From IMG/VR virus record IMGVR_UViG_3300044846_003008: a DNA stretch of 64,000 bases. One strand, given 5' to 3'. Source of the stretch: a virus. Of this stretch, positions 42,831 to 63,565 are shown piece after piece. Numbering within the stretch: position 1 is the first letter of the stretch; each line of letters starts with the position of its first letter. A program made the position numbers and the translations under genes. Below the pieces are notes generated by a model. That model worked only from the letters and a program-made list of their open reading frames with translations. It was not told the DNA's origin and made no database searches.

Positions 42831-42831
42831 A

Positions 42832-43020
42832 TTATCTTTCGAAATAATTGGTGTAAACTTTCAACTCATCTTTTATGTAAATCAATAATAGATTATTGAA
42901 TACGTCTTTAAATTCATCTAACTTAAATGTTTTAGATTCTTTAATATTTTCCACCCATAAATCACTATCTAATGATAGTAAAAATTTATTATCACTTTTT
43001 CTTTGTATTTTCTTTGTCAT
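42832..43020 (-). CDS. Small hypothetical protein
   Basis: 62-aa ORF starting 1 nt after the preceding stop. Confidence 0.6.
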   Translation of the reverse strand: MTKKIQRKSDNKFLLSLDSDLWVENIKESKTFKLDEFKDVFNNLLLIYIKDELKVYTNYFER

Positions 43021-43021
43021 C

Positions 43022-43714
43022 TTAATTATATATTTTAATTTCTATTGGTGTATTATATAACATAAATCTTGCGGAACTAAAAGTTTGAATATCAATTACG
43101 TATAACATTGGTGTAAAAAATAATGGGTCAATACTTGCCATAAATAATGGTAAGTCAGATGAAAACCCATAAGGGACTGTTGTTCCTACAGTGAATGTTG
43201 TTTTTTTAGGGTTAAAGATATCTTCGGTCGGACTATCTGAGAAAAATAAATAAACACCATCAATACCAATTCCAGGATAATCAGGAACTAAATCAAAACC
43301 TAAAGTATTTTCAATAACATTCATAATCACATTACCCGATGAGGTTAAAGTTGACCCAATCCAAGTGTCAGCTAATATTTCTAATGTTGAAGTGCTACCT
43401 GTAACTTTAAACACACATCCTGTTTCATTTATTACCCCCTCAAGAACTTCAGCAACGTTTGAAAAATCATCACCTGCGAAGTAATCGTCAATAGTATATG
43501 TTTCTCCCAATATAAAACCACCAAGTGGTGTATCGGTATCACCAAAGAACGTTAAGGGACCTGTATGTGTTACTAACGCACGATAGATTCTATATGGTGT
43601 TATTGATGAATAGTTAATGTGGTAAGTATCACCACTTAATTCCACAGGTATCTTAGTGTTGGGTGTTAAATTAGTTAGTTCGGTTAATTCACCGATAGTT
43701 TTTCCTGTAACCAT
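43022..43714 (-). CDS. Putative virion structural/decoration protein
   Basis: N-terminal 'KTIGELTELT' resembles starts of phage fibre/appendage proteins. Beta-rich. Apparently co-transcribed with the BppU-like gene. Confidence 0.6.
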   Translation of the reverse strand: MVTGKTIGELTELTNLTPNTKIPVELSGDTYHINYSSITPYRIYRALVTHTGPLTFFGDTDTPLGGFILGETYTIDDYFAGDDFSNVAEVLEGVINETGCVFKVTGSTSTLEILADTWIGSTLTSSGNVIMNVIENTLGFDLVPDYPGIGIDGVYLFFSDSPTEDIFNPKKTTFTVGTTVPYGFSSDLPLFMASIDPLFFTPMLYVIDIQTFSSARFMLYNTPIEIKIYN

Positions 43715-43725
43715 TTTTTTATTTT

Positions 43726-44379
43726 TTAGTTAATTATTTTTAAATATAAGTTAAGGCCAACATTTAAATATGTGTCAGTCCCGATTAATAAAGCGTCAGT
43801 TATTTGTTGTTCAGGTATTGTTGGTGTTGGTGTTGGTGTTGATGTTGGTGTTGTTGATGGTATTGGTGTTGCACTCACTGATGGTGTTGGTGATGGTGTT
43901 GGTGTGTTACAAGGTTCACAACTTGGACAAGGTGTTGTGGTGGTGGTTGTTGTGTATGGTCCATTAACGCAACAAGGGAATTCTGAAACATAACAAGACT
44001 CGTAATTTAATTCATCAGCAATAAACGATTCTTGGACATATATGTTTAATTTTTCACGTATCGGTAATATCAAAACACCATCATCGGACCTTAACATAAA
44101 TTGACCTTCATATTTACCAACATCCTTAGTGTCTTTAGAATTGAATTGGTAATAGATATAATACTCAGGTTCGGCATTTGGGTCAATAAATGTTTTCTCA
44201 ACAAACCCTGCCGGTCTTGAATTAATCTTAGATAAACCTGTATCAACATTAACCATTGAAAAAAAGATTGATGACAATTCTATGGTTTTCATAAAATTAT
44301 CATAATCACTTCTACCGTCTTTAACTACTTGTAATTTTAATACAGGTAATGTTGCATTTTTTTTAATAAAAAAATCCAT
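43726..44379 (-). CDS. BppU-N-like virion protein with a Thr/Pro-rich tail
   Basis: 'FFIKKNATLPVLKLQV...YYQFNSKDTKDVGKYEGQF' followed by TTTTTTT and PTPSPTP...PTPTPTPT. Confidence 0.7.
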   Translation of the reverse strand: MDFFIKKNATLPVLKLQVVKDGRSDYDNFMKTIELSSIFFSMVNVDTGLSKINSRPAGFVEKTFIDPNAEPEYYIYYQFNSKDTKDVGKYEGQFMLRSDDGVLILPIREKLNIYVQESFIADELNYESCYVSEFPCCVNGPYTTTTTTTPCPSCEPCNTPTPSPTPSVSATPIPSTTPTSTPTPTPTIPEQQITDALLIGTDTYLNVGLNLYLKIIN

Positions 44380-44420
44380 TTATTATTTTTATTAATAAAT
44401 AGTCTGAAATTAAAAAAATA

Positions 44421-44442
44421 AAGGGGTAATTACTCACCCCTT
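44421..44442 (-). terminator. Terminator ending the glycosylation operon
   Basis: AAGGGGT-N8-ACCCCTT hairpin followed by TATTTTTT on the minus strand. Confidence 0.7.
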
Positions 44443-46132
44443 AACTTTCTTTTCTTAATTCACGTTCATAATGGTCAAACCTGTTATGCTCTGTTGGTGT
44501 TAATAATAGTAACCCGAATTTTAATTTACCTCTCTTTAATTCTTGAAACATATGGCTCATCCAAGTCTGTTCATATGGGTGTCTCCAAGTTGTTTCTAAA
44601 AACATTTTTTTACTACCACTTTTAGATACTAATTGAGGCCAATTACAATAATAAATCTCACCTGTAACATAAGGGACACCATCATAAATTTTAATATTTT
44701 CGTATTTAACTTTAGGTGCGTTAGGGTCAGTTCCTTGTTCAGGTAACTTTGAATACTCTGGCCAATATTGTTCTCTAACAACTTGAGGGACATTATACCA
44801 AGTCCATTGTGTTGAATTGTCACCAAAGAATTCACTAAAGTTAAGTTTTAAATAATCAAAATTCTCTTGTTTAGCAATCATCATTGATTTATCGTAAAGG
44901 TCGTCAATCATTCGATTAAAACCATTTCTACATACTTCACCTTTTTTAGGGTAAAAGAACATATCGTCCTCAAAAAAATACATATATTCTAAATCGGATT
45001 GTTCAAAATGTTCAGCTATCCATTGTCTTCCGCCACAAATCCCTAAATTATCCTTTTTAATATGTTCAAAACCGTATTTAGAACATAACTCACTATAAAT
45101 TGGTGTTGTGGATAAATCAGTTGAATTATCCAATAGAATCTTTCTTGGCTTTTCAATAAAGTTTTTGTCATATTCAAGCATTGACATTATTAATGTCTCT
45201 AATTGTTTTGGACTATTAAAACCTATCACATAAAGACCAACATTATCTTTGGTTATTTTTGGTATTTGATTAACATTTTTATTTATGAAATTATTATCAT
45301 AATTTTTAAGTTCTTCAAAAAATGGCCATACAAGACCATTACCTTCAATTTCGTATTTATAAATTAAATCAGGAAATTTGTGAGTTAAAATGGTGAATAA
45401 ACATTCATCGGCACCCATATAACCACTTTTTAGTGTATTTTCCAAAATAGAATAATACTGATGATTTAATTGATGGATAACGCTTTTCTCACCACCAAAA
45501 AACCCCCCTCTACAAACATAACGAACGTAATCGGTGTTACAATATTTCGCCATTTCAGTTCTTTCAAATCCGTGTATTTCGGGACTACCTTCATATGGGT
45601 AAGCTAAATGAACATATTTTATATCTTTTTGAGACATAAATTCTGTTAAATTATTTAACACTAAATCTTTTTGGAAATAACCTTTGTTAACCGTATGTGT
45701 TAGACCACCATCAACCCAATAAAAATATTTACTATTAAACGGATTCATAATTGCCGTATCATTTAACATAAACATTTTTGTTAACATCATTGCGTTATAT
45801 GATTCTAACGCGGCTTGTGGTGATTCTCTTAACCATCCAGATTGTGATAACCATTTTTCGTCTTTTCTAATTTTTTGTATTTCATCAAAAAACGGGTTCC
45901 AAGTATTAAAATCTGAGACTTCTTTAATAAAAATCCTTGTTGGTTTATCACCACGGATTCTCTCAACGTCAGACTTTAAATCGGAAGGTATCCAAATACA
46001 CATCTGAACATCAACTTCTAACATTTCAAAAAAACGTTCTTTATAATAACTAAAATCTCTTTTAGCCCAAGATTCTAAATTCCCTCTACCAACATCCCAA
46101 AGACCTGTAACGATTGTAATATCTGTATTCAT
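44441..46132 (-). CDS. Two-domain glycosyltransferase: HtrL/YibB-like plus GT-A (GT2-like)
   Basis: N-half 'ITIVTGLWDVGR...KMFML...FYWVDGG...GGFFGG...DECL'. C-half 'VIGFNSPKQLETLI...LLDNSTD...DNLGICGGRQ...FFEDD'. Confidence 0.78.
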   Translation of the reverse strand: MNTDITIVTGLWDVGRGNLESWAKRDFSYYKERFFEMLEVDVQMCIWIPSDLKSDVERIRGDKPTRIFIKEVSDFNTWNPFFDEIQKIRKDEKWLSQSGWLRESPQAALESYNAMMLTKMFMLNDTAIMNPFNSKYFYWVDGGLTHTVNKGYFQKDLVLNNLTEFMSQKDIKYVHLAYPYEGSPEIHGFERTEMAKYCNTDYVRYVCRGGFFGGEKSVIHQLNHQYYSILENTLKSGYMGADECLFTILTHKFPDLIYKYEIEGNGLVWPFFEELKNYDNNFINKNVNQIPKITKDNVGLYVIGFNSPKQLETLIMSMLEYDKNFIEKPRKILLDNSTDLSTTPIYSELCSKYGFEHIKKDNLGICGGRQWIAEHFEQSDLEYMYFFEDDMFFYPKKGEVCRNGFNRMIDDLYDKSMMIAKQENFDYLKLNFSEFFGDNSTQWTWYNVPQVVREQYWPEYSKLPEQGTDPNAPKVKYENIKIYDGVPYVTGEIYYCNWPQLVSKSGSKKMFLETTWRHPYEQTWMSHMFQELKRGKLKFGLLLLTPTEHNRFDHYERELRKES

Positions 46133-46141
46133 ATAAATTTA

Positions 46142-46747
46142 TTATTGTTTAATTTTACAAGCCCAAACAACTTGTCTAAAGTCATCTTCCATATATGGAA
46201 TTAAATTATTTCGGAGACTAGGCTCATTAATATCATTATCTTGAATTTCCAACCAATTCCAAATTTTATTATTAATATGTTCTTGGAAATATTCTTCATT
46301 CGGTGCATAGTCGTGAGCCATAATGACATCACCAACTTTTAAATAATCTGATAGAATTCTAAATTCGTTTTTCTTACTACCACCATCACATAACACTAAT
46401 GTTACTCCTTCTGATGTTATAATATCAATAACTTCTTGACCATTTTCTAAATTATCGTATTGATTGTTAAAAACGTTTTCAACTTTTAATTCAATTTTTG
46501 AACCTTCATCAACATATCGTCTTAAATAAACAGGTTCATTAACATCATAACTGATTAACCTAGTTGACTCCAATCCATTTTTATCTAAAATGTCACGTAT
46601 TAATAAAGTTAACCCACCGGATGATGTACCTATTTCTAAAACTTTAATCGGTTTTAACTCTGTTATTAGTTTTGTAAATTTTTCTTCAATTGAAGTGTGT
46701 TGCATTGTCATTAAATCTCGGTAGATAAAATATCCTGAAATACTCAT
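46142..46747 (-). CDS. Class I SAM methyltransferase (CmcI / Methyltransf_24-like; probable sugar O-methyltransferase)
   Basis: 'VLEIGTSSGG', 'ISYDV', 'LCDGG', 'LKVGDVIMAHD'. Confidence 0.8.
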   Translation of the reverse strand: MSISGYFIYRDLMTMQHTSIEEKFTKLITELKPIKVLEIGTSSGGLTLLIRDILDKNGLESTRLISYDVNEPVYLRRYVDEGSKIELKVENVFNNQYDNLENGQEVIDIITSEGVTLVLCDGGSKKNEFRILSDYLKVGDVIMAHDYAPNEEYFQEHINNKIWNWLEIQDNDINEPSLRNNLIPYMEDDFRQVVWACKIKQ

Positions 46748-46748
46748 T

Positions 46749-47483
46749 TTATATTTTTTTAATTAGGTTTAGTGAGAAACTTGAATTGTCGTGAATTAAG
46801 TATGGCTCAGTATTAAATTTAGTTTTTATTTTTTTATTTTCAATCGTATAATATGAATCATCTAACATTGCCGTCGAAAAAAAATAATCACAATTCTTAT
46901 CAGTGTTTAATTCTTTAATTTTAAGATGATAATATTGCCAAACACCTTGGTCGTCCCAAAAGTCAATATTGGTAGTTAAACAAATATTTTCTAATTCCTT
47001 AATTAGTTCATAAAAAGTATTTGTTTTAGAAATTATTGCTCCGGAGTTCAGATAAAAAAATTCTTTTTCATCCATTGGTTCACCCATCCATTTAGACACT
47101 TCGTGAATATATGGCCAACAATTTTTTTCGGTCGAAACCACAATATCTTCACCTGACTGAATAAATTTATCAATCATATCGTTAGAACTTCTACTAAATT
47201 TAGTATCACTAAAATCAATATGTGTTAGATATTCATATTTACCTAAAATGTTTTCCTCAATAAATTTTCTTAGAAGAAAAATTTTCCCATAAACTAAATC
47301 TTTACGACCTGTAATTCCAATATTTGGGATTTCTTCCATATTGAAAGGGTCAAATTTATTTGAAAAGTTAACATAAATGTCCTCCACATCACCATCAAAA
47401 TTAAACTTACTTTTTAAGTGTTCTTGTGAAATTTCGTGACAACCATTACAATAGTATGTGGTAATTACTGAGTGTTTTTTCAT
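46749..47483 (-). CDS. PLOD/LH3-type glycosyltransferase domain protein
   Basis: 'HIDFSDT', 'VVSTEKNCWP', 'YLNSGAII', 'DDQGVW', 'LIHDN' match the procollagen lysyl hydroxylase GT-domain pattern (AE.xCWP, LNSG, DDQ, HGN). Confidence 0.78.
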   Translation of the reverse strand: MKKHSVITTYYCNGCHEISQEHLKSKFNFDGDVEDIYVNFSNKFDPFNMEEIPNIGITGRKDLVYGKIFLLRKFIEENILGKYEYLTHIDFSDTKFSRSSNDMIDKFIQSGEDIVVSTEKNCWPYIHEVSKWMGEPMDEKEFFYLNSGAIISKTNTFYELIKELENICLTTNIDFWDDQGVWQYYHLKIKELNTDKNCDYFFSTAMLDDSYYTIENKKIKTKFNTEPYLIHDNSSFSLNLIKKI

Positions 47484-48157
47484 ATATTTGTTTTTTTCAT
47501 AAAATGATAATCACCATCAGGACCATTATTAGTAAAAAAGGATACTAATTCAAACCCCAACGATTCAATAAATTTAATGGATTCGACATTTAACGGTGCT
47601 CCAATATTATATTGACTATGTTGTAACTCAATAATTAAATGTTTGCAAGTTTTTAATGTTTCTGTCATACCTTTTAGAATATCGACTTCACATCCTTGGA
47701 CATCAATCTTTATTAAATCAGGTAATTTAAATTTTTTATCTTTAACCACAGTATCTACTGTGATTGTTTTTACAATTCGTTCACTATCTTTACCAAAATA
47801 TAAATCAGTTGCCCAACTATATTCTTTATAATATGAGTTACCGCCAGGACTTTCATTACTTTGGTAAAAAATTAACTCTTTATTATCTACATCACTTAAC
47901 ACACCTAAATGATATTCAAAACCAACCTCATCATATAAAAACCCAACAGAATCCATACCGTCAAAAAGGTAGTATGTTGAATTAGGCCAAATTTTTAAAG
48001 ATTCTTTAGTCCAATGTAATACACAAGCACCAATATCGTAAATTACCTCCGGTTCAAAATTAAATTCTTCTTTTAATTTTTTTAAGTATAAAATATGACT
48101 ATCAGGTATTGGTGACATATTTGATAAATTTTTTAAATTGTTTTTTACATTTTCCAT
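47480..48157 (-). CDS. FkbM-family methyltransferase
   Basis: 'VIYDIGA', 'TITVD', 'PDLIKIDVQGCEVDILKG', 'IIE'. Confidence 0.88.
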   Translation of the reverse strand: MENVKNNLKNLSNMSPIPDSHILYLKKLKEEFNFEPEVIYDIGACVLHWTKESLKIWPNSTYYLFDGMDSVGFLYDEVGFEYHLGVLSDVDNKELIFYQSNESPGGNSYYKEYSWATDLYFGKDSERIVKTITVDTVVKDKKFKLPDLIKIDVQGCEVDILKGMTETLKTCKHLIIELQHSQYNIGAPLNVESIKFIESLGFELVSFFTNNGPDGDYHFMKKTNI

Positions 48158-48159
48158 AA

Positions 48160-48897
48160 TTAGATTAAATTAAACCCTTCAATAATTCTTGGACTACCAT
48201 AATTCCATCCATTATCGTGAACAAACATTGGGGTAGTGTTAGTTAATTTATGTTTTAACATACCATTTTCATTTTCAAACCAATTTCTTGATGTTAGATA
48301 TGTACTTAAAAAATGTTGACACGTTTCATCTAATTCTATATTAGGTGAGAGATTATTAATAAAATAATAAGTATAAACTCCTTGGTCGCCTCCAAAATTT
48401 TTATAATTTAGAGGTAATACCGATTCAATAGATTTATCTAATAATTTAAGATATAATTCTTTAGTTGTTACTATAAGACCTGAATTCAAATAAATATTGT
48501 TATTTATATTCCACTCAGGGTAAGATGATATTGGACCCCAAGATGAATTATCATTTGGGTATTTATTTTTTTCTGATGAAAAAATTATACCATCATTATA
48601 TTTTAATTCATTAATATTGTCTAGACAAACAACATCATTGGTGTCACAATAAACAATAAGATTATCATCAATTTCAATTAATTTATCCTTGAATAATTTT
48701 ATCTTATAAAGAATAAATTCAAATTGATATCCATAATTGTTTTCAAATTCTTTTTCCAATTCAACATAATCATTTCGGTTGAAGTGTATGTTGATAAAAT
48801 CATTTTCATTATTTTTTTTAATAAACGACTTATATAGTATAGTGTTTTTATAATCAAAATGTGGGTCATAAGACCAAGTAACAGAAACTAACTTCAT
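48160..48897 (-). CDS. PLOD/LH3-type glycosyltransferase domain protein (paralog)
   Basis: 'VYCDTNDV', 'IFSSEKNKYP', 'YLNSGLIV', 'GDQGVY', 'FVHDNG'. Confidence 0.78.
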   Translation of the reverse strand: MKLVSVTWSYDPHFDYKNTILYKSFIKKNNENDFINIHFNRNDYVELEKEFENNYGYQFEFILYKIKLFKDKLIEIDDNLIVYCDTNDVVCLDNINELKYNDGIIFSSEKNKYPNDNSSWGPISSYPEWNINNNIYLNSGLIVTTKELYLKLLDKSIESVLPLNYKNFGGDQGVYTYYFINNLSPNIELDETCQHFLSTYLTSRNWFENENGMLKHKLTNTTPMFVHDNGWNYGSPRIIEGFNLI

Positions 48898-49610
48898 TCT
48901 TGTTCGTCTTTTGGGTATCCTTGTGTTATATATTCTTCATAATTTACATCAAAGAACCATAAATCACTATATGATGAATATTGTGTGGTTAATCCGAATT
49001 TATAACACATTGCTTTATATATTGTCGGTAAAACATCTAATGGTTGGTCTAAATTATAATAATCATACTTATCAGGATGAGTTACAACATCAACACCATA
49101 AGGTGCTAATGATAATAATTCATCGGGAGTTACGGGTTGACCAAAGAAATTAGTTTCACTAAAATTATCAATAATGAATTTACAAAAATCACGTTTAATT
49201 AAATATGATTGTGCGTAAGATACTGACGAAACTTGTAAGCAGTTATTTTTAACTTTAATTGGGTTTCGTCTATTTCTACAACCTAACCAAAACACGTCCC
49301 ATTCAGTGTTGTTAATATCATTAAAGATTTTATTACCATCCTCTTTTAATACATCTAAAAACAAGCAATCATCTTCTAATATTAATAATGTTTCAAAATC
49401 GGTTTCTAATAATTTTTCCATTAATTGTAGGTGACTTCGTTTACAATTTAAGGTGTTAGAATCATACCCCGAAAACGCGGAATGTCTCTCAACTCCCGAA
49501 ATATTGAAATCTATTAACTGAGACTCAATTTTTTCTTTCCTATCTTCACGTTTATCAAGATTTATATAAAAACCTATATCCGCAATTTTTATATCATTAA
49601 ATTTAACCAT
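48894..49610 (-). CDS. Glycosyltransferase family 25
   Basis: 'YINLDKREDR', 'C..SH', 'LILEDD', 'WDVFWLG', 'AQSYLI', 'QYSSYSD'. Confidence 0.85.
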   Translation of the reverse strand: MVKFNDIKIADIGFYINLDKREDRKEKIESQLIDFNISGVERHSAFSGYDSNTLNCKRSHLQLMEKLLETDFETLLILEDDCLFLDVLKEDGNKIFNDINNTEWDVFWLGCRNRRNPIKVKNNCLQVSSVSYAQSYLIKRDFCKFIIDNFSETNFFGQPVTPDELLSLAPYGVDVVTHPDKYDYYNLDQPLDVLPTIYKAMCYKFGLTTQYSSYSDLWFFDVNYEEYITQGYPKDEQE

Positions 49611-49615
49611 CTTTT

Positions 49616-50863
49616 TTACAAATTACCTGTTATTCTATCACCCCAACCTTTGGATTGACTATGTGGCCATACTACCCAATATTTTGGTTTGAGTGTTGTT
49701 TGGAACTCTCTCCATACTTTACAATATCCTTCAGGGTCATTCTTCATTCTATTTATTTCGTGAACGTCAGCGTCTTGTCTGTGAATTGTTTCATCATTTT
49801 CATCGTGAAAAGCGACAACCCAAAAGTCGTAATCATTTTCAGGGACTGAATCAAAACCAATATCAATACAATGTTTGAATATTGACGCGTAACTATTTAA
49901 CCATTCTTCCTCTGTTTCAAAAATTTGTGGGTTTGGTGGGTAATTTTTATCTAAAGTGTATTGTTGTACCGCTCTTTTTGAAAATAACAAACCTGAATAA
50001 ATTTCATACTCTTTTAATGTACGTTCAGTTCCGAAACCATAGATACCAAAATCTAATGTGACTTCTTCACCATCCATACCAAATAATTGTCTATTTTTAG
50101 AATGTGAAATGGTGTTTTTAGTCCCCCAATCTTTATCGTCATCCCATTGTTTTGTTCTACCTTTACGAGTATATTCGTGCCAAATCACAACTTTATGTGG
50201 GTGGAATAAATCATATCCGTGAGTATATGCTCTTGCCGCGATTGAGATTTCTTCTCCGTGGAAATAAAACTCAGGGTCGTGTTGAACTTCAGTACTGAAT
50301 TGACCAACACTGAATGCGAAATGTGCTGAATAAAATCTTGATGTTACAGGTTCTTTCAATTTCTCCCACCCAGGTATTGTTTCAGGTAAAAAGAATACGG
50401 CACCTTCAGGGATGAATCGGTCAAACACCATTCTCCAAGGTTCTCTAATACGTTCTGCCGGGTCATTCTCAGGGTTAAATGATGATACATAACCTGTTAA
50501 TAATGGTTTTGGGAAACCTTTCTTTTGTAATTGTTTAATCATTTTGATTAAAGTATCGTCCCAATCTTTTTCAAATCTCATATGAGAATCAATTTGTAAG
50601 GTATACTCTTCACCATCATATAATTGTTGTACTTGATTTCTCGCCCAACAAACACCTTTAGAATCTGAATATAAAACATCTAAAATTCTAAAACGTTTAT
50701 CTTTACGATAATCATCTAATGTGTCAAACCCATCTTCAGGATGGTATTGACGACAAATTCCAATTCTAAGGTTATTTGGTTTTTTCGCGTTAGTAATCAT
50801 ATCCTTAACCGTTTTTTCTAATTCGGGGTCACGATATGATGCAATTTGTACAAATATTTTCAT
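49616..50863 (-). CDS. GT60-like polypeptide/hydroxyproline alpha-N-acetylglucosaminyltransferase (Dictyostelium Gnt1/ModB family)
   Basis: 'IFVQIASYRDPEL', 'GICRQ', 'SKGVCWAR', 'LQIDSHMRFEKDWD', 'F.GEE...ARAYTHGYD', 'WHEY'. No signal or transmembrane anchor. Confidence 0.85.
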   Translation of the reverse strand: MKIFVQIASYRDPELEKTVKDMITNAKKPNNLRIGICRQYHPEDGFDTLDDYRKDKRFRILDVLYSDSKGVCWARNQVQQLYDGEEYTLQIDSHMRFEKDWDDTLIKMIKQLQKKGFPKPLLTGYVSSFNPENDPAERIREPWRMVFDRFIPEGAVFFLPETIPGWEKLKEPVTSRFYSAHFAFSVGQFSTEVQHDPEFYFHGEEISIAARAYTHGYDLFHPHKVVIWHEYTRKGRTKQWDDDKDWGTKNTISHSKNRQLFGMDGEEVTLDFGIYGFGTERTLKEYEIYSGLLFSKRAVQQYTLDKNYPPNPQIFETEEEWLNSYASIFKHCIDIGFDSVPENDYDFWVVAFHDENDETIHRQDADVHEINRMKNDPEGYCKVWREFQTTLKPKYWVVWPHSQSKGWGDRITGNL

Positions 50864-50952
50864 AAATTATTAGTTTTAATAATAATAAAGATTTATGAAA
50901 ATAAATAAAGTTGATTAATTAGAAAAATTATTCTCTATTCGTATAGTGGACC

Positions 50953-53900: not shown

Positions 53901-56900
53901 TCCAAGAATTAAATCCTGTTGTTTGACTAATAAATGGTGTCCTATTAGTTGGTAATGACATTGCGAAAACTTGACCTGTACAACAACTAGCCACGGCAAA
54001 TAATGAATATGGTGTTGTTGGTGTCGGTGTCGGTGTTTTTGTCGGTGTTTTAGTTGGTGTGTTAGTTGGTGTTTTTGTTGGTGTTACGGTTGGTGTTTTT
54101 GTTGGTGTTGGTGTTTTTGTTGGTGTTGGTGTAACATTGACAGGACCAACATTATATACGTACCCTTCTAAGTTACAAAGGATTGGTTGTGGTGTTTTAG
54201 TTGGTGTCGGTGTCAGTGTTTTTGTCGGTGTATTAGTTGGTGTTTTTGTTGGTGTTGGTGTATTAGTTGGTGTTTTTGTTGGCGTATTAGTTGGTGTTAC
54301 GGTTGGAGTAACAGTTTTTGTTGGCGTATTAGTTGGTGTCGGTGTTGGACAAATAAATGATGTTGATTTTACCAATATAGTACCTGAAGAATCTTTAACC
54401 GCCACCCAATAAGTTGTTCCAAAAATTGAAACTCCGTAACCTATACTTGAAGTAGTAATCCAATTAGTGTTAGTTAATGCCTGAATTTGTGTTAAAAACA
54501 CTGATGCTCCCACTTGATATGGTGGAAAACCACCAACAATGTTGTTTAAACTCACTGTTGCGGTAGTCCCATTACACGAGGATGTTACGGTAAAATTAAG
54601 TGGTGGTCTTGTATTCGTTGGAGTATTGGTTGGTGTTGTCGTTTTTGTTGGTGTCACGGTTGGTGTCACGGTTGGGGTAGGAGTTTTAGTTGACGTTGGT
54701 GTTGGGGTTGGTGTAGGACAAGGATTTGTGATTAAACAAGAGTTACAGTTAAAATCCCCTCCAACAGGTGGAAACGCAGGTTTTGTATTATCCCAAATAA
54801 TTGTTGTTGGTAATGAAACGGGTGTAAGTATTTTATAACATTTACCATTAGTCGCGATTAAAACATAGTTTGTGTTTACGTATGGTGTTGGTACATTAAT
54901 TACTTCATAGGTTGGTGATGAAATTGGGTCACAACAAGCAATTGCGTATGCGGATGAGTAAAAAGTTGTTTGTGTTGGGGTATTAGTTGGTGTTTTAGTT
55001 GGGGTATTAGTTGGGGTATTAGTTGGTGATTTAGTTGGGGTATTGGTTGGTGTTACAGTTCTTGTTGGGGTATTAGTAGGCGTATTTGTTGGTGTTTTTG
55101 TTGGTGTGTTAGTTGGGGTTACTGTTCTAGTTGGGGTATTCGTAGGTGTATTTGTCGGGGTGTTCGTAGGGGTATTCGTAGGTGTATTTGTTGGGGTTAC
55201 AGTTCTAGTTGGGGTATTCGTAGGTGTTTTTGTTGGAGTGTTAGTCGGAGTATTGGTCGGAGTATTGGTCGGAGTAACAGTTCTTGTTGGTGTATTCGTA
55301 GGCGTTTTTGTTGGAGTGTTAGTCGGAGTATTGGTCGGAGTATTAGTCGGAGTAACAGTTCTTGTTGGGGTATTTGTAGGAGTGTTGGTAGGTGTTTTCG
55401 TAGGTGTATTTGTAGGTGTGTTGGTCGGGGTTTGAGTGTTAGATGGAGTGTTGGTTGGCGTGTTCGTAGGGGTTTTAGTTGGTGTCACAGTACTTGTTGG
55501 CGTGTTCGTAGGGGTTTTAGTTGGGGTATTTGTTGGAGTATTAGTTGGTGTATTTGTCGGTGTCTGTGTTATAGTTGGTGTGTTAGTTGGGGTATTTGTT
55601 GGGGTATTTGTTGGGGTTTTAGTTGGTGTGTTAGTTGGTGTAACGGTTCTTGTTGGGGTATTCGTAGGGGTTTGAGTTCTTGTGTTCGTTGGTGTGTTTG
55701 TTGGTGTATTTGTCGGAGTTTGAGTTCTTGTTGGTGTGTTCGTTGGGGTTAGAGTACTAGTCGGTGTGTTAGTAGGCGTTTCAGGTGGTGTTGAACCGGG
55801 TGTTCTTGTTGGTGTTGGGGTTTGAGTTCTTGTTGGTGTATTAGTCGGAGTGTTAGTAGGTGTATTAGTCGGAGTGTTAGTAGGTGTATTCGTAGGTGTA
55901 TTCGTAGGTGTATTAGTTGGTGTATTAGTCGGAGTTACAGTTCTTGTTGGTGTATTCGTAGGGGTGTTCGTCGGAGTATTTGTTGGGGTATTCGTCGGAG
56001 TGTTCGTCGGAGTTACTGTTCTTGTTGGTGTGTTCGTTGGTGTGTTTGTTGGTGTATTTGTAGGTGTGTTAGTAGGTGTATTAGTTGGCGTTACAGTTCT
56101 TGTTGGTGTATTTGTTGGGGTATTAGTTGGTGTATTTGTTGGGGTTACGGTTCTTGTTGGTGTATTCGTAGGTGTATTTGTCGGTGTATTCGTTGGTGTA
56201 TTTGTTGGGGTTACGGTTCTTGTTGGGGTGTTTGTTGGTGTATTTGTTGGTGTATTTGTGGGCGTATTAGTTGGGGTAACAGTACTTGTAGGTGTGTTAG
56301 TTGGGGTATTAGTTGGTGTGTTAGTTGGCGTGTTAGTTGGTGTGTTTGTTGGGGTATTAGTCGGAGTGTTTGTTGGTGTGTTAGTCGGAGTGTTAGTTGG
56401 TGTGTTAGTCGGAGTGTTCGTAGGTGTATTAGTAGGTGTATTAGTAGGTGTTACGGTTGGAGTTTGAGTTCTTGTTGATGTGTTAGTTGGAGTATTCGTA
56501 GGTGTGTTAGTAGGTGTGTTAGTTGGGGTATTCGTAGGTGTTTTTGTTGGTGTATTTGTCGGAGTATTAGTTGGTGTTTGAGTTCTTGTTGATGTGTTAG
56601 TTGGTGTATTTGTCGGGGTTGGTGTCAGTGTACTTGTCGGGGTTGGTGTTGGGGTTGGACAAGGGTTTGTTGATAAACAAGATGAACAATCAAATTCACC
56701 TCCAACAGGTGGGTATACTGGCTGAGTATCGTCCCATACAATTGTTGCTGGAATTGTTGTGATTGTAAGTACTTTATAACATTTACCATTAGTTGCAACT
56801 ACAACATAATTAGAATCAACACCCGCATATAACAATGGAACCCTAATTACTTCGTATATAGGTGATATGTCACAACAAGCGATAGCATATGCTAATGTGA

Positions 56901-59469
56901 ATGGTGTTGTTGAGGTTGGTGTTTGTGTTGGGGTTTTTGTCGGGGTATTAGTAGGGGTGTTTGTTGGTGTATTAGTAGGTGTGTTTGTTGGTGTATTAGT
57001 AGGTGTGTTAGTCGGTGTTTTTGTCGGTGTTACTGTTCTTGTTGGTGTGTTGGTTGGTGTTTGAGTTTGTGTTCTTGTATTAGTCGGTGTATTTGTTGGT
57101 GTTTTTGTTGGTGTTGGAGTTGACGTTGGCGTTGGTGTTGGGCAAATAAATCCACCTTGATTACATTGGAGACAACCACTAGTCGAATTATCGTTATAAA
57201 AATAGATATTAACGTTATTCCATACTTTAGTTGCCGGACCAAAAGGGGTATTTGGACTAATGTCATAACATTGTCCTAAAGTATCTACTACAGTCCAAGA
57301 ACTAAACCCGTTTATTGGGTCAAAATATGGTGTATAGATAGTCGGTAATGACATTACAAACTGAGACCCACTACAACAATTAATAACAACAAATAATGAA
57401 TGTGGCGTTGTTGGTGTTGGGGTATTAGTAGGGGTGTTAGTTGGGGTTACAGTACTAGTTGGGGTTACAGTACTAGTTGGTGTTTTTGTTGGCGTATTTG
57501 TTGGTGTGTTAGTAGGGGTGTTAGTAGGGGTATTAGTTGGGGTGTTAGTCGGAGTATTTGTCGGTGTTACGGTTCTTGTGTTAGTTGGAGTGTTAGTTGG
57601 AGTGTTAGTTGGAGTGTTAGTCGGTGTATTTGTTGGGGTATTAGTTGGTGTTACAGTTCTAGTTGGGGTTACAGTTCTAGTTGGGGTGTTCGTAGGAGTA
57701 TTCGTAGGGGTATTCGTAGGTGTATTTGTAGGTGTGTTAGTTGGCGTATTCGTAGGAGTGTTAGTCGGAGTATTGGTCGGAGTATTAGTCGGGGTATTAG
57801 TTGGTGTTACAGTTTTTGTTGGTGTATTTGTTGGAGTGTTAGTTGGGGTATTCGTAGGTGTGTTAGTTGGAGTATTTGTTGGTGTTACTGTTCTTGTGTT
57901 TGTTGGTGTGTTAGTAGGTGTGTTGGTCGGGGTATTAGTTGGTGTTACAGTTCTTGTTGGAGTATTTGTCGGGGTGTTAGTTGGAGTGTTAGTTGGTGTG
58001 TTGGTTGGTGTTACAGTTCTTGTTGGAGTATTTGTTGGAGTATTTGTTGGAGTATTTGTTGGGGTATTTGTTGGTGTTACAGTTCTAGTTGGGGTGTTTG
58101 TCGGTGTGTTTGTTGGCGTGTTAGTTGGTGTGTTAGTCGGGGTAACAGTTCTTGTTGCGGTATTCGTTGGAGTATTAGTCGGAGTATTCGTTGGAGTATT
58201 AGTCGGAGTATTAGTCGGAGTATTAGTTGGTGTATTTGTTGGTGTATTGGTTGGCGTATTTGTTGGTGTATTGGTTGGCGTATTTGTTGGTGTATTAGTC
58301 GGAGTATTTGTTGGGGTGTTAGTTGGAGTTTCAGTTGGAGTATTCGTAGGGGTATTCGTAGGTGTATTTGTCGGTGTATTTGTCGGTGTTTTTGTTGGCG
58401 TATTAGTCGGAGTATTTGTTGGAGTATTTGTCGGTGTATTAGTTGGGGTTTCTGTCGGAGTATTCGTAGGGGTATTCGTAGGTGTGTTAGTAGGAGTTTC
58501 TGTTGGCGTATTTGTTGGGGTATTCGTAGGTGTGTTAGTGGGAGTTTCTGTTGGAGTTGAAGTTGACGTTTTAGTCGGAGTATTTGTGGGTGTGTTAGTT
58601 GGAGTTTCTGTTGGTGTATTTGTTGGTGTATTTGTTGGTGTTGATGTTTGGGTACTGGTAGGTGTTTGAGTTTGAGTTTTAGTGGGCGTTGGTGTGGGTG
58701 TTGGGCACGTATAAATTGGATTAAATGTGAAACAAGTTGCACAATCAACCATTGAGCCCATTGAAATGTGTTGGTAAATATTTGTTGACGTTGTTGAAGG
58801 TATTGATTCAGCACAACCAACAAACCCATTTGTTGATATGAAATAACTTCCGGATAATGGATAAAAACTATAAGGTATCTTAGAAATTGTGAATTCATTA
58901 TAAGGTGAACAACAATTTCTAAACTTACCAACAATTGGTGGTAATGTTGGTGTTGGCGTTGGGGTTGGGGTTTGAGTTGGTGTTGGTGTTGGGCAACCAT
59001 TAGCGTCGCACCTTACTGAATAAACTACAGTTCCGGGCTCATCAATCGTGACGTTATATCCGCAGAAATATAAGATGGTGTTTGGTAAAATTTGTGAAGA
59101 AATTTCGGTCCCATTACATAATGTTAAACTATAATTTAAATTTTCACTTTTTGGGTTGATAATTGAAATACAACGACATTTAGCGGGTGTGCTGGTCGGT
59201 GTACTAGTCGGTGTTAATGTTGGTGTCGGTGTTGGTGTTATGTCACAAGGTAACAATAACATTTCTTCACAATTATTAGCGTCCGTTGCGATAACTAAAA
59301 CCTCACCAAATAATTCGATACCTCCAAATTCAGGAACTTGGAGAGTTAACGTTGGAGGCACGGAAACAACACCTGTAATAACCTTACTACAATAAGTTCT
59401 TGTCTTATCGCAGATTATTATCTCATAAGGTGAATGACCCGTTAAACTTGTTATCTGAACTACACTCAT
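50953..59469 (-). CDS. Giant mucin-like virion fibre protein: TPTN repeats, Cys-rich modules, proprotein-convertase P-like domain, C-terminal LamG/ConA-like domain
   Basis: 2838 aa. Long (T-P-T-N/R/K/E/V) tracts. P-domain '[16 protein letters not shown]...LVSPTG...[10 protein letters not shown]...G.L' at about 52600-53070. LamG 'GLVLWYDAG...SVEAWVK...WVHLVGV...YINGV...[14 protein letters not shown]' at about 50960-51620. No signal peptide. Confidence 0.85.
53100..59240 (-). repeat. Degenerate 12-bp coding tandem repeats ([12 protein letters not shown]) in several blocks
   Basis: Plus strand shows units such as GTTGGTGTATTA/GTAGGTGTGTTA/GTCGGAGTATTT. Main blocks at about 54010-54350, 54965-56660, 56905-57140 and 57400-58710, with third-position variation between units. 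Confidence 0.95.
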
Positions 59470-59562
59470 TATTTAAACATAAATACCATTTATATTTGTT
59501 ATTTTTTAATACATTTATAAAAAATAACTGATAATTTTTAAAATTAAATGAACAATCTAATC

Positions 59563-60627
59563 TTAAAGAGATGCACAAGGTACATTGTTAAATAATTGAC
59601 AAACTGACGATTCTAAAAATGAGGTAATTTCTTCATTTGAAAATGTTGGTGATAACCCGTTATATCTTGAAAGTAGTACTAAACCTAAGTAAATACTATG
59701 TCCTGTAACTATCACAGAATTCGTCATTAATTGCGGATTATCAGTATTTCGATTATCATCAACCCCTCTAATATCTGACCCCCATAATGTGCTAGTTACG
59801 GTAAACCACACATAAACAATACTTGGTGTTTCAGGCGAGTGGTTAGTGTAACTATACCAATTACCATTAATATCACCACAAGTGTAAGTTCCGTTATCTA
59901 ATTCTTCAGTTCTATCACCACTACCCGGAGCTCCAAAAGCACCGATACCGATAGTGTCTACAGTACTACCAAATCTGGTCATAGTTAACTGAGGCCAAAC
60001 GTTTTGTTTGGTAACAAAATAATAAGAACCAATTGTTCCGTAAGTGATTGGAATTGGACTATCAATCAATATTCTATTACCATTATCGAACATATCAAAT
60101 CCACCGTCTTGGATGTAATTAGTTGAAGGTATAAAGTTATATAGGTATTCAAACGTCATTGCAGAATACGGGACATATGAATTTAATTTCCACCAATTAG
60201 ACATTTGGGTTAAACAAGATACGGGAGTAACACTTGGGGTAAGTGTTGGGGTAGGTGTGTTAGTTGGTGTTGTCGTTGGTGTATTTGTTGGTGTTGGGGT
60301 AGGTGTTATTAAACAAGGGTTAGGTGTTATTGTTGGTGTATTTGTTGGTGTTGGGGTTGGCGTGTTAGTTGGTGTTGTGGTTAATGTTGGTGTTGGTGTC
60401 GGTGTCGGTCTTTGAACATTTAAAAAATTAGGACAATCCGAACCTGACACTAATATAGTGTAGGACCCGTAAACATCACGAGGTGGGGTTAAGATTGATG
60501 GGTCGAACGTGTAAGGTAAAATAACTTCACCTAAATTTATGGTTGTATTAACATTGTCAGGTTTAAACAAAACATTTGCTTGTTCTCCATCGTAATTTAT
60601 ACTTGATATTATAATTGATTTACTCAT
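59563..60627 (-). CDS. Virion-associated protein with a Thr/Pro repeat linker
   Basis: N-terminal beta domain, about 65 aa of PTPTPT/TNTP repeats, globular C-terminal domain. Confidence 0.75.
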   Translation of the reverse strand: MSKSIIISSINYDGEQANVLFKPDNVNTTINLGEVILPYTFDPSILTPPRDVYGSYTILVSGSDCPNFLNVQRPTPTPTPTLTTTPTNTPTPTPTNTPTITPNPCLITPTPTPTNTPTTTPTNTPTPTLTPSVTPVSCLTQMSNWWKLNSYVPYSAMTFEYLYNFIPSTNYIQDGGFDMFDNGNRILIDSPIPITYGTIGSYYFVTKQNVWPQLTMTRFGSTVDTIGIGAFGAPGSGDRTEELDNGTYTCGDINGNWYSYTNHSPETPSIVYVWFTVTSTLWGSDIRGVDDNRNTDNPQLMTNSVIVTGHSIYLGLVLLSRYNGLSPTFSNEEITSFLESSVCQLFNNVPCASL

Positions 60628-60631
60628 CTTA

Positions 60632-63565
60632 TTAAAAATTATTTTCCACGGCTAAACAAATTTCGCCATTCATTGATATTAGTCGAGACATATCACTAAA
60701 TGAAATGTATACGTGACCTTGTTTACCCCAATTTTGTCCCCAACTATTTTTAATTCTAAATAATTGTCTTGTTTTATCAACACCGTTAATTACGTATGCG
60801 TGACCACCAACAATACCACCTGTTGCTCTAATTAAACCATTCTTATCTGGATAGAACATTCCTGAGAACCAATATGTCCCAACAACTACGGGGCCTAAAT
60901 TAAACACGGTATTTATTAATGTATTAACATCGTAACCCCAATAATATGATTTAATTGCGTTTATTGATTTTAAATATTTAGCACCCGCTCTAACTGATGT
61001 TCCGTTATAATTTTCTCCCGGCCATTCATCTATTTTTTGGGACTCACTATAAATTAATTGAGGGTTAATGATTGGGGGAATTCCTCCGTGTTCCACAGGA
61101 CCGTCTTCAATCCAATGAGACCAAGCATAACCAACACATTGTGGTGTTGACCCTTGATTACCCCACCATCCGTCAGGATTCCAATACTTACTAAGATTCT
61201 GAGGTGTTGGGGTTGGTGTTGGGGTTCGAGTTGGGGTTCGAGTTGGTGTTGGTGTTGGTCGTTTTGATGAACTTGGGGTCGGTATAGGTCGTCTTGTTTT
61301 ACTTGGTGTTGGCGTTCTTCTATATCTAGTAACAACAGGTCGATTAACGACACTCATTAAATAATCGTAATTGTTGTTTATTAGATAATTTTTATCTCTG
61401 TCGTCAGGAATATATAAACGACCTAATAAATTTGCGTCAGGTTTTATTTCTATTGGAATCTCCGGAAGATTACCATCAATAATTTCATAAGTGAAATCAT
61501 CAATTTTACAAACATCGGTTGAACAATCAGGACAATCAGGGTTAAACATTCTAAATGTGTTTTTTAACACATTAAAATTATGTTTAACTTCAGGAGCAGA
61601 CATTGGGGTAACATACATTCTAAATTGTGATACACCACCTTCAAATGTTCCTGCGAAATATTTGTCAAGAATTATATTAGTATTTAACTGACTAAATGTT
61701 GTTCCGCTTAAATTAAAATCCGATAAACATTCAGGGTCTTGAATATATGGTCCATTAGGTAACGTTGTTGATGAGAAAATTAAATGTTCTCTTAACCCTT
61801 GTGTACCACCACCCCAAGAAATATTGAATGGGACTCCGACTTGTTTTTCTTTATCGGTATTTAACCCTCTTGGTATTATTTCTTCGAAGTCTTCTATAGT
61901 GTGAAAAATCTTACCATTAACATAAAGTTTTAATCGACCTTTTCGATATGCTTTTTCGATTAACCATTTTTCATTTAAATTAACTAAATCAATTTGTTCT
62001 GCCGGTGTGGAACCTGTGTGGGTGTATTCAACGTTTACTAAAGAAATTGAGTTATTCGATAGTGATTGTAAATACGATTTTGTGGTTATTTCACCTAAAC
62101 CACCTTTATAGTACAAATCACAATAATCAAACCAAGTATAACGTTCCCAAACCGCATTTAATTGGAACCAATGTTCTTCTTCTAACCACGCAGGGTTTTC
62201 AGTTTGACATCTAGGGTATATCGGGTCGGTGCAATAATTATCAATAGTAAATCCTGTAACATAAGTTGTACCTGTTTCCGAGCAAGAAGATAAGATATCG
62301 TCAGGAGAAACCTGACTATTATCTAATAATGAAACGGTTACACAATTACCGGTAATTCTTAAAACTCTAACACCGATTTGTGGGTTTTTAGGGTCCCCAC
62401 ATAATTTAAATGACAATGCGTTTGACATTGAATCAAATAATGGGTCAGTCTCACAAGTATTCTCAACTGATGAGGTATACCCCGTACCACATATGTGTTT
62501 TTGGCATTCCCAACCACAAGTATCGTATTCGGTTGGGGTACAACCACAACTCGTACATCCTGTAATAATAGTTGAACCTGTTGTTGGTGTACTACATCCG
62601 CAGATATCGCAACCATAATTAACGTGAGAATCGTGAATATTATTAAATGACCTTGGAGGGTAAACATACACACAACGACTATTGGTAACCCCCGTGTTAC
62701 AACAAGCACAAGTTTCTAATTTATTTTGTAATTCGCTCGTAACTCTAGTATAACCCGTTAATGAAATTGGGGAACCATCGGCGTGGTGGTAGAATTTATT
62801 TTCAGCTCTACTACCTATATAAAAAAATGTGTTTTTATTTTCAGGGTAAAGTACATTTAATGTTGTTTCGTCAGAATCGGGAAAATATTCGTCAACTAAT
62901 CTTGGTTTTAGTAACATTTCAACCGACCAACCTTTATTCATTCGTTCAGGAAATATTTCGTAATCATAACCAAATAGTTTGTAAAAACCTTGGTAAAAAC
63001 CACCATATAATTCGTGGTATCGACCTTCATAAGGACTATATTTACTAACAACTTCATATAATATGGTTTTATCAAAACCTGAGAAACTGATGTTTGGGGT
63101 GCTAGTGTGACCTGTCACTTGAAACATCTTTAATCGTCTATCAAAATATAAACGATTGAACTTTAATGAATCGTCGAATAATCCATTAGTGAATGTAATG
63201 GTTTGACCTGTTAATGAATCAACAAGTCCGTTATCCATACCTGTTAGTCCGATATCACACGATGTTGACCCTGAGTAACAAGACAAATCTTCATTATCTT
63301 TATTGTAATAATTTAATGAAACGATAACGTTATCTTCGTTGTATTCTTTGTAATTTAATATTTGATTTTGAACTGATAAGGTATTATTAATATCTAATGA
63401 AAATGGTAATCTATTACCATATGTTTGGGCAATTAAATAAGGTGAAAATACCACTTCTTCATTATAATCCCTTTCGTCATTAGACAAAGACATATCTTGG
63501 GAATCTAAATTCAATTTAATCCCCCAATTTGGTTTACCGTATTGATTAATATTTTGACCTGACAT
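60632..63565 (-). CDS. Cys-rich LamG-like structural protein fused via a PT linker to a papain-family (C1A) cysteine peptidase
   Basis: LamG-like pieces 'WSVEMLLK', 'KLYVNGK', 'FEGGVSQFRMY'. C-terminal 'NQGSTPQCVGYA' (Gln/Cys), 'GGHAYVING' (His), 'IKNSWG..WG..GH' (Asn). Confidence 0.85.
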   Translation of the reverse strand: MSGQNINQYGKPNWGIKLNLDSQDMSLSNDERDYNEEVVFSPYLIAQTYGNRLPFSLDINNTLSVQNQILNYKEYNEDNVIVSLNYYNKDNEDLSCYSGSTSCDIGLTGMDNGLVDSLTGQTITFTNGLFDDSLKFNRLYFDRRLKMFQVTGHTSTPNISFSGFDKTILYEVVSKYSPYEGRYHELYGGFYQGFYKLFGYDYEIFPERMNKGWSVEMLLKPRLVDEYFPDSDETTLNVLYPENKNTFFYIGSRAENKFYHHADGSPISLTGYTRVTSELQNKLETCACCNTGVTNSRCVYVYPPRSFNNIHDSHVNYGCDICGCSTPTTGSTIITGCTSCGCTPTEYDTCGWECQKHICGTGYTSSVENTCETDPLFDSMSNALSFKLCGDPKNPQIGVRVLRITGNCVTVSLLDNSQVSPDDILSSCSETGTTYVTGFTIDNYCTDPIYPRCQTENPAWLEEEHWFQLNAVWERYTWFDYCDLYYKGGLGEITTKSYLQSLSNNSISLVNVEYTHTGSTPAEQIDLVNLNEKWLIEKAYRKGRLKLYVNGKIFHTIEDFEEIIPRGLNTDKEKQVGVPFNISWGGGTQGLREHLIFSSTTLPNGPYIQDPECLSDFNLSGTTFSQLNTNIILDKYFAGTFEGGVSQFRMYVTPMSAPEVKHNFNVLKNTFRMFNPDCPDCSTDVCKIDDFTYEIIDGNLPEIPIEIKPDANLLGRLYIPDDRDKNYLINNNYDYLMSVVNRPVVTRYRRTPTPSKTRRPIPTPSSSKRPTPTPTRTPTRTPTPTPTPQNLSKYWNPDGWWGNQGSTPQCVGYAWSHWIEDGPVEHGGIPPIINPQLIYSESQKIDEWPGENYNGTSVRAGAKYLKSINAIKSYYWGYDVNTLINTVFNLGPVVVGTYWFSGMFYPDKNGLIRATGGIVGGHAYVINGVDKTRQLFRIKNSWGQNWGKQGHVYISFSDMSRLISMNGEICLAVENNF

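Follow-up and report, generated by a model that had tools for sequence, protein, structure and literature searches.

Whether a phage can build mucin-like glycoproteins with enzymes of its own is the question raised by a 64,000-nucleotide stretch of viral DNA, the IMG/VR virus record IMGVR_UViG_3300044846_003008 (the whole stretch is called the window hereafter), in which seven genes for glycan-modifying enzymes lie between genes for proteins with threonine-proline (TP) tracts. The reading that we favour, at a probability of about 60%, is phage-encoded O-glycosylation of the TP tracts on the phage's own fibre or adhesin proteins, taking place in the host cytoplasm. The gene content and order, the family membership of the enzymes, the fold of the lead enzyme (a glycosyltransferase, GT, of the GT60-like type) and the conserved pairing of GT60-like and TP-tract genes were established directly.

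A preliminary description of this DNA, made from the letters alone, had noted seven tightly packed, co-oriented enzyme genes with two ATGA overlaps and one terminator, flanked by four Thr/Pro genes, and this layout was confirmed at 44441-50863. All twelve open reading frames (ORFs) of the region, the seven enzymes and the flanking proteins included, were recovered on the minus strand at the positions listed below. The two 4-base ATGA overlaps lie at 47480-47483 and 48894-48897, and the remaining gaps within the cassette measure 1-9 bases. The enzyme families that had been named were matched by Pfam profiles for all seven genes. Five of these genes, between the GT60-like and the HtrL-like gene, form what is called here the variable block. 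Lengths are given in amino acids (aa).

43726-44379, minus strand: small conserved TP-tract protein, 217 aa, with a 135-aa N-terminal domain followed by TP tracts (translation and TP mask)
44442-44421, minus strand: strong terminator-like hairpin of 9 pairs followed by a T run, just past the last enzyme gene, at the operon end
44441-46132, minus strand: putative glycosyltransferase of the HtrL/YibB family (WlaTC/HtrL), 563 aa (Pfam PF09612, E 5.5e-19)
46142-46747, minus strand: class I methyltransferase (Methyltransf_24, CmcI/TylF-like; Pfam); variable block, present in some relatives only
46749-47483, minus strand: PLOD-GT-like GT-A glycosyltransferase, paralogue a (PF25342, E 2.3e-9); variable block, present in few relatives
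47480-48157, minus strand: FkbM-family methyltransferase (Methyltransf_21; PF05050, E 8e-15; phrog_8156); variable block
48160-48897, minus strand: PLOD-GT-like GT-A glycosyltransferase, paralogue b (PF25342, E 8.8e-14); variable block
48894-49610, minus strand: GT25-family glycosyltransferase (Glyco_transf_25; PF01755, E 1.7e-8); variable block
49616-50863, minus strand: GT60-like (PF11397 'GlcNAc') soluble glycosyltransferase, 415 aa (Pfam 241.8 bits, E 1.9e-71)
50953-59469, minus strand: giant beads-on-a-string protein, 2838 aa, with a conserved N-terminal domain, ten TP tracts and a C-terminal LamG domain
59563-60627, minus strand: 354-aa protein made up of an N-terminal domain (70 aa), a TP tract (67 aa) and a C-terminal domain; homologues in relatives
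60632-63565, minus strand: 977-aa protein whose N-terminal region of ~750 aa is joined by a TP/RT linker (767-792) to a papain-like (C1) peptidase domain at the C-terminus

The GT60-like protein scored against a Pfam profile whose curated cut-off is 21 bits, and it also matched phrog_24687 (E 1.6e-163). Residues D92 and H94 (LQIDSHMRF, D92-x-H94) and H229 were invariant in 44 homologues with identities down to 36%, the pattern expected of the DxH...H manganese site of GT27 and GT60 enzymes, to whose residues they would correspond. An AlphaFold2 model built on a 44-sequence alignment reached a mean predicted local distance difference test (pLDDT) of 95.2, compared to 33.7 in single-sequence mode. 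The likeness to initiating enzymes of mucin-type O-glycosylation, claimed in the preliminary description, was borne out by this model, since its best structural matches were all ppGalNAc-Ts, the mucin-type polypeptide GalNAc-transferases. In fold, the enzyme is of the GT-A type related to GT27, and it possesses both the DxH metal motif and the distal histidine. A beta-rich C-terminal domain of ~90 aa (residues ~325-415) was barely covered by the fold search, and no ricin-type lectin domain, a hallmark of GT27, was detected in the Pfam scan of the protein. We propose that the product of this gene acts as the initiating polypeptide O-glycosyltransferase of the system. The characterised GT60 enzymes initiate mucin-type O-glycosylation with GlcNAc in protists, and GT27 enzymes are their relatives (PMC8724618). 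The enzyme had been called protist-like, a label that has to be dropped, since bacteria and phages contribute clusters to the family in the thousands: at 90% identity the phage protein matched over 7500 clusters, and at the 50% level 4679 representatives (E below 1e-3). P0125 and other representatives are proteins of up to 2461 aa with up to four stretches matching the query, which suggests that several GT60-like domains may be present per chain in these long proteins.

TP tracts were detected in 4 of the 38 ORFs of the window, exactly the four that flank the cassette. The largest of these, the 2838-aa protein, had been credited with hundreds of threonines and contains 820 (28.9%), together with 419 prolines (14.8%). 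Its ten tracts account for 1399 of its 2838 residues, the longest being 443 and 573 aa, and they are built from 183 TPTN, 32 TPTK and 21 TPTRTV units, with TPTE occurring only 5 times; the 183 TPTN units are encoded by 55 different DNA spellings. Its other modules are repeated ~75-aa units with six cysteines, a proprotein-convertase P-domain and the C-terminal LamG domain, a region similar to annotated virion structural proteins of S-PM2, S-RIM32 and Flavobacterium phages and also to phrog_8510. We propose that this protein would be the main acceptor. Like mucin-type domains, it carries long tandem Thr/Ser/Pro-rich repeats; mucins also pass through the secretory pathway, and the TP proteins and the enzymes are without signal peptide or transmembrane segment. 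The 2838-aa protein may consequently work in a mucin-like manner, yet it would be no mucin in the cell-biological sense. The 217-aa protein has tracts of the types TTTTTTTP..., PTPSPTPS... and [11 protein letters not shown], and the Atlas look-alikes of its N-terminal domain were viral hypothetical proteins only, together with a weak lead towards BppU_N on which nothing was built. For the 977-aa protein, the C-terminal ~190 aa matched PF00112 (Peptidase_C1) and a phrog_16701 peptidase (E 1.3e-50), and no phage match was obtained with the N-terminal 755 aa; this protein may be a virion-borne protease.

The preliminary description had seen no evident signal peptide, and none was found in the 12 cassette and flanking proteins, in which no signal-peptide-like N-terminus and no 19-residue segment above 1.45 on the Kyte-Doolittle scale were detected. 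The seven enzymes, predicted to be soluble, had a maximum 19-residue hydropathy of 1.13 or less. Moreover, family searches of the window detected no flippase, polymerase, lipid-carrier priming transferase or GtrA/B/C-type family. The lack of signal peptides and membrane segments and of flippase or lipid-carrier enzymes was counted in favour of a cytoplasmic system. Among the accessory enzymes, the HtrL-like protein has a C-terminal domain of ~270 aa and belongs to an Atlas cluster of 3145 members, 99% of them viral. In searches of Protein Data Bank (PDB) sequences, four queries (the GT60-like protein, PLOD-like b, FkbM and the HtrL-like protein) gave no match; the nearest entry to the GT25-like protein was Mimivirus R655, a weak match (E 0.0017).

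In the mechanism that we propose, the GT60-like enzyme would place the first sugar on threonines of (T-P-T-x)n tracts, using a host UDP-sugar, most likely UDP-GlcNAc, as donor. The target tracts would be located in the multi-domain fibre or adhesin proteins of the phage, chiefly the 2838-aa protein encoded directly upstream. The HtrL-like enzyme and a lineage-specific set, here GT25, the two PLOD-GT-like enzymes, FkbM and Methyltransf_24, would then extend, cap and methylate the glycan. The product would be extended, mucin-like spacers, densely glycosylated, that separate the globular modules of proteins which belong to the virion or are released together with it. Such spacers, rigid, brush-like and shielded from proteases, could hold the 6-Cys modules, the P-domain, the LamG domain and the papain-like peptidase off the particle. 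What we infer is the acceptor, the sugar donated, the location on the virion and the benefit to the phage; threonine is favoured over hydroxyproline as acceptor because searches of the window and of three relatives detected no prolyl hydroxylase.

To follow the locus across related phages, we used the 320 IMG/VR contigs that encode a close relative of the GT60-like protein, of which the best 80 were fetched. Among these, 67 loci had at least 1.5 kb of upstream DNA, and in 59 of the 67 a TP-tract ORF on the same strand had its end no more than 900 bases upstream of the point where the GT60-like gene starts. The upstream ORFs ranged from 175 to 3315 aa and contained 32 to 1253 TP-tract residues, an extreme variation which shows that the TP repeat is retained while its length varies freely. 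The frame kept across the relatives consists of the TP gene or genes, the GT60-like gene, the variable block, the HtrL-like gene, the small TP protein and, a few kb further on, the family B DNA polymerase (PolB). Nearly every relative had the HtrL-like gene along with the GT60-like gene, and the phages XacN1 and RAS14 have it too, with 40% identity. Homologues of the 217-aa TP protein (50-89% identical) occupied the same site after the HtrL-like gene in most of the 80 loci. In the TP ORF upstream of the GT60-like gene, the N-terminal domain of the 2838-aa protein was kept and the distal end varied, which is the usual architecture of receptor-binding fibres.

The enzymes had been pictured as priming, extending and methyl-capping the glycan. 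The five middle genes do not encode a fixed pathway, however; in the comparison they behaved as a swappable cassette that differs between close relatives, phages whose GT60-like proteins are at least 75% identical. The block between the GT60-like and HtrL-like genes measured 1.5-7 kb and, in loci whose GT60-like proteins are 78-87% identical, it contained GT11 and GT25 genes; a DegT aminotransferase gene with GT25 genes; an epimerase gene with a GT34/methyltransferase fusion; or RXYLT1-like/GT2, GT10 and GT7-like genes. Block replacement was mapped in the related loci L006, L016, L042, L063 and L088, over ~11-17 kb of each. Such a layout is the pattern of a diversifying, O-antigen-style glycan locus with a fixed enzyme that would initiate the glycan.

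The pairing extended to more distant loci. At 62% identity (L088, L089 and L095; 38-40% G+C), a 370-aa ORF with ~200 residues of TPTA/TPTN was located directly upstream of the GT60-like gene, and behind it these loci also carried a second GT60 paralogue and GT25, FkbM and GT11 genes. In the 39% identity group, the longer contig L094 had a TP-tract ORF 4 kb downstream. GT60 homologues of 45-48% identity were present in the cultured jumbo phages XacN1, Xoo-sp13, Stenotrophomonas CM1 and RAS14; in XacN1 and RAS14, the only TP tracts nearby are linkers close to the C-terminal end of a giant ORF (3100-3300 aa) that adjoins baseplate wedge genes. Copy number and genome-wide TP distribution were taken from the relatives G001-G003. 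The complete relative G001 has a single GT60 gene and, in five regions away from the cassette (L415-L419), about ten proteins with TP linkers, attached to SprB, BspA-LRR, DUF285, Fib_succ_major and other domains; one of them ends in a domain resembling a baseplate wedge or tail-fibre connector (phrog_677). TP linkers are therefore a design feature of this phage group throughout the genome.

We then surveyed 80 GT60 loci from bacterial genomes, in which TP-tract ORFs were counted by gene rank among non-overlapping ORFs. TP-tract ORFs represented 18 of 415 ORFs at ranks 1-3 from the GT60 homologue, 3 of 236 at ranks 4-5 and 0 of 391 at rank 6 or more (Fisher p = 7e-6). The TP-bearing loci belonged to Gemmatimonadota, Acidobacteriota, Verrucomicrobiota, Planctomycetota, Bacteroidota and several proteobacterial orders. 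A test in the reverse direction, with viral stretches picked solely by a (TP)6- or (AP)6-coding DNA pattern, also spoke for the pairing: a GT60-like gene was present in 9 of 120 (TP)6-selected stretches and in 0 of 119 (AP)6-selected ones (p = 0.003). The co-occurrence of GT60-like and TP-repeat genes anticipated in the preliminary description was accordingly found in related phages, again at 62% identity, and in bacteria of several phyla; overall, the first interpretation is partly supported, every part of it open to a computational check having passed. In four Burkholderiales loci, VgrG spikes (with Phage_GPD, gp5 OB and gp5 C-terminal domains) have long (TP)n or (EPT)n C-terminal tails, which suggests that VgrG spikes of the type VI secretion system (T6SS) may be glycosylated. 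VgrG proteins, like phage tails, are assembled in the cytoplasm. The four loci are L143, L165, L152 and L163 (Ralstonia, Paraburkholderia, Trinickia, Achromobacter), and the VgrG gene is three genes from the GT60-like gene. In Gemmatimonadota (L108 8438-9232; L112 9212-9952), a protein with a PqqD domain and a C-terminal TP tail is encoded directly upstream of the GT60 gene, and the metagenomic contig L085 reads GT60-PqqD-ScmC-GT60-FkbM. Proteins that combine TP tracts with PqqD, a recognition-type domain of ribosomally synthesized and post-translationally modified peptides, may form a class of glycosylated peptides or proteins. Some of the remaining TP neighbours contained LamG or fn3 and BNR domains, and in three bacterial loci the TP neighbours had N-termini that, by eye only, resembled twin-arginine signals. 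In L102, a 610-kb contig (62% G+C) from a metagenome-assembled genome (MAG) of Lewinellaceae, the GT60 homologue was 61% identical to the phage enzyme, which could reflect gene exchange between phage and host; no TP ORF was found within 10 kb of it.

Several observations weigh against O-glycosylation of TP tracts by the phage. The adjacency counted in the 59 loci is, among relatives that are 75-89% identical, largely inherited synteny. The result of the reverse test is inflated by the abundance of this one lineage. TP linkers are also common without glycosylation: the other 111 of the 120 (TP)6-selected stretches had no GT60 gene in the stretch, and a nearby GT60 gene is therefore missing for most TP tracts. 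For XacN1 and RAS14, the TP tracts nearest to the GT60 homologue are 20-47 residues long and ~9 genes off. In L090-L093 (39% identity), no TP ORF was found in the 10 kb upstream, the downstream side being cut off. Complete relatives also encode TP-linker proteins at a distance from the cassette, in four to six further genome regions. For a virion location of the TP proteins, the indications are confined to architecture and to similarity at the domain level, of LamG to annotated virion structural proteins and, in a relative, to phrog_677. Finally, the GT25 and HtrL families are best known from the synthesis of lipopolysaccharide (LPS).

This last point leads to an alternative in which the glycan that the cassette builds or modifies is not on protein but, for example, on host LPS, capsule, exopolysaccharide or a glycolipid, and the TP tracts are plain, extended, unglycosylated linkers that are frequent in the fibre genes of this phage by chance. 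GT25 and HtrL/YibB owe their names to LPS-core genes, the cassettes with GT10, GT11, GT25 and DegT look like O-antigen loci, and this explanation also accommodates both the TP linkers in many proteins far from the cassette and the TP-tract stretches that mostly go without GT60. We nevertheless consider it unlikely: the seven enzymes have no membrane segment, and the window shows no flippase, polymerase, lipid-carrier priming transferase or component of the GtrA/B/C type; the family of the lead enzyme and its nearest folds are those of polypeptide transferases; and the GT60/TP pairing recurs in unrelated bacteria, beside cytoplasmically assembled VgrG and PqqD-domain proteins. The tracts might also be glycosylated on carriers that are not virion proteins, namely adhesins or decoys freed at lysis, or intracellular scaffolds. 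None of the TP proteins of the window is encoded within the tail/baseplate module at 1-33 kb, those of the relative bear cell-surface adhesin domains (SprB, BspA-LRR, DUF285, Fib_succ_major), and XacN1 was reported to be without visible tail fibres (PMC5852040). We judge this quite improbable, as the LamG end of the giant protein matches annotated virion structural proteins, one TP protein of G001 has an end like that of a baseplate wedge or tail-fibre connector, a constant N-terminus combined with a varying distal end is what fibres usually show, and the XacN1 glycoproteins came from purified virions (PMC5852040).

Two further alternatives concern the acceptor. Hypermodification of the phage DNA with sugars, like T-even glucosylation or the glycan clusters acting on 5-hydroxymethylcytosine (5hmC), has some precedent, since phage GT clusters that add mono- to trisaccharides to 5hmC are widespread and sometimes lie near structural genes (bioRxiv 10.1101/2023.12.21.572611), and a thymidylate-synthase-family gene is present in the relatives. 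Those clusters, however, need an adjoining cytosine methyltransferase and a 5mYOX/TET enzyme. The window has neither of the two and no dCMP/dUMP hydroxymethylase; searching three relatives for Tet_JBP was also negative, a weak result because the control genomes were silent too. The ThyA-family gene of the relatives is more than 170 kb from the cassette and scores as ordinary ThyA, and DNA modification offers no reason for the enzymes to track TP-repeat genes in phages and bacteria; we give it very little credence. As for the residue modified, Gnt1 is a soluble cytoplasmic GT60 enzyme that modifies hydroxyproline, on Skp1, and in the phage repeats proline is as regular as threonine, so that hydroxyproline could be the acceptor rather than threonine. 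However, no prolyl-hydroxylase-type domain of the 2-oxoglutarate-Fe(II) kind (PF13640) was detected in any of three relatives, of which two are 91% complete or more, with positive controls, and the family scans of the window revealed none either, which makes this variant highly improbable in our view.

O-glycosylation of TP tracts by the phage, as we propose it, can be compared with several known systems. The protist GT60 enzymes, namely the pp-alphaGlcNAcT of Dictyostelium and Trypanosoma cruzi and Gnt1, have PF11397, the GT-A fold and the DxH motif with a distal histidine in common with the phage enzyme, which is soluble like Gnt1, and the phage TP repeats, adjoining the enzyme gene, resemble PTVT-type spacers and T. 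cruzi mucin repeats. In contrast to the protist enzymes, the phage enzyme is virally encoded, would act in the bacterial cytoplasm and not in the Golgi, and has the extra ~90-aa beta-rich C-terminal domain, its activity being a prediction. Compared to animal GT27 enzymes, it is only 11-15% identical and belongs to another CAZy family, and unlike animal mucins its presumed substrates have no signal peptide and involve no secretory pathway. Virion glycosylation by phage enzymes is already known: in the mycobacteriophages Che8, Corndog and Myrna, virion proteins receive their sugars from phage-encoded GTs (Freeman et al. 2023, as cited in PMC12363180). As presented in that citing paper, the system is alike in that phage GT genes act on the phage's own virion proteins inside the host; it differs in its substrates (capsid and tail-tube proteins, as opposed to TP repeats on the kilobase scale), its actinobacterial hosts and its demonstration by mass spectrometry, and its GT families seem, as far as can be told from that account, to be other than those of the window.

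For giant viruses, virus-encoded, host-independent glycosylation has been described for Megavirinae fibrils and chlorovirus capsid glycans, with clade-specific glycan gene clusters (PMC10117803). The glycosylation of surface fibres and the clade-specific clusters are common to both, and the GT25-like protein of the window weakly resembles Mimivirus R655; on the other hand, the hosts are eukaryotic, the carriers are GMC oxidoreductases or Vp54, the initiating chemistry is different and no link to GT60 is reported. Among the cultured phages, XacN1 (with Xoo-sp13, CM1 and RAS14) is a near counterpart and offers an experimental precedent: its virions contain at least 2 Schiff-staining glycoproteins, and virion glycosylation was suggested for it (PMC5852040). 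It has a GT60 homologue (ORF334, 48% identical) and an HtrL homologue (ORF330, 40%) near PolB, as well as a giant ORF of 3100-3300 aa with PT linkers. It differs in its TP tracts (20-47 aa, ~9 genes away) and in its accessory enzymes, a carbamoyltransferase and GT9-annotated enzymes, and the stained bands are not tied to ORF334. Our literature search found no paper linking GT60 or PF11397 to phage proteins or TP repeats. What is new here is the enzyme family, the adjoining substrate of mucin scale, the swappable glycan cassette, the metagenomic abundance and the parallel in bacteria with VgrG and PqqD-TP proteins.

A broader idea, which we put forward tentatively and regard as possible but doubtful as a whole, is that prokaryotes and viruses own a cytoplasmic counterpart of mucin-type O-glycosylation; that GT60-like enzymes would coat TP spacers on extracellular machines put together in the cytoplasm, namely phage fibres or adhesins and T6SS VgrG spikes, and act on PqqD-tagged TP peptides; that a hypervariable cassette, in the role of an O-antigen locus, would give every phage lineage its own glycocalyx; and that the initiating GT60 and GT27 enzymes of eukaryotes may have arisen from the pool formed by the family in phages and bacteria. 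If O-glycosylation of the TP tracts is correct, abundant environmental jumbo-type phages make mucin-like glycoproteins with their own enzymes, phage virion glycosylation reaches beyond a few actinophages to Gram-negative hosts by way of a different enzyme family, and kilobase-scale mucin-like domains exist outside eukaryotes. The lineage-specific cassettes would then represent a phage surface diversity affecting adsorption, survival of proteases and grazers, and immune recognition in therapy. The bacterial parallels suggest the same chemistry on secretion-system spikes and peptide natural products, and the GT60 enzyme could serve as a tool for cytoplasmic O-glycosylation in bacteria.

The window (33% G+C) contains the core gene set of a large contractile-tailed phage, with a recognisable tail/baseplate module at 1-33 kb:

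in the window: baseplate J/gp25-like genes, a tail tube gene, gp32, UvsX, a DnaB-like helicase and a class I ribonucleotide reductase
29151-32996, minus strand: unusually long sheath protein, 1281 aa, whose recognisable sheath domains are confined to the last 280 residues
39931-42741: family B DNA polymerase (PolB)

A megablast search of 39931-50863 against GenBank phages gave no match, and the phage matches of PolB were just 22-31% identical, which indicates that no cultured phage is closely related to it. Of the related IMG/VR contigs, which extend to 215-322 kb, one (G001) is rated complete. The nearest matches of the GT60-like protein in bacterial bins (70-73% identity) came from Saprospiraceae, Bacteroidia, Lewinellaceae and Chitinophagaceae MAGs; together with the adhesin-type domains of the complete relative (SprB, BspA-LRR, DUF285, Fib_succ_major), these bin matches point to Bacteroidota as a possible host.

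Three minor observations concern other genes. The thymidylate-synthase-family gene of G001 (G001:C1:5332-7607, minus strand) was matched piecewise by the profile over ~2.3 kb, and the same gene in G002 and G003 has a frame of 413-424 aa, which exceeds the usual ThyA; an insertion such as an intron or intein may be present. In the tail module of the window, two giant ORFs of 2221 and 1678 aa (12636-19301 and 19617-24653, minus strand) had no Pfam match. On the plus strand, 36851-38389 encodes a 512-aa protein whose C-terminal extension of ~285 aa matched no family and which contains a complete Fe/Mn superoxide dismutase (Sod_Fe_N at 37-115 and Sod_Fe_C at 122-226).

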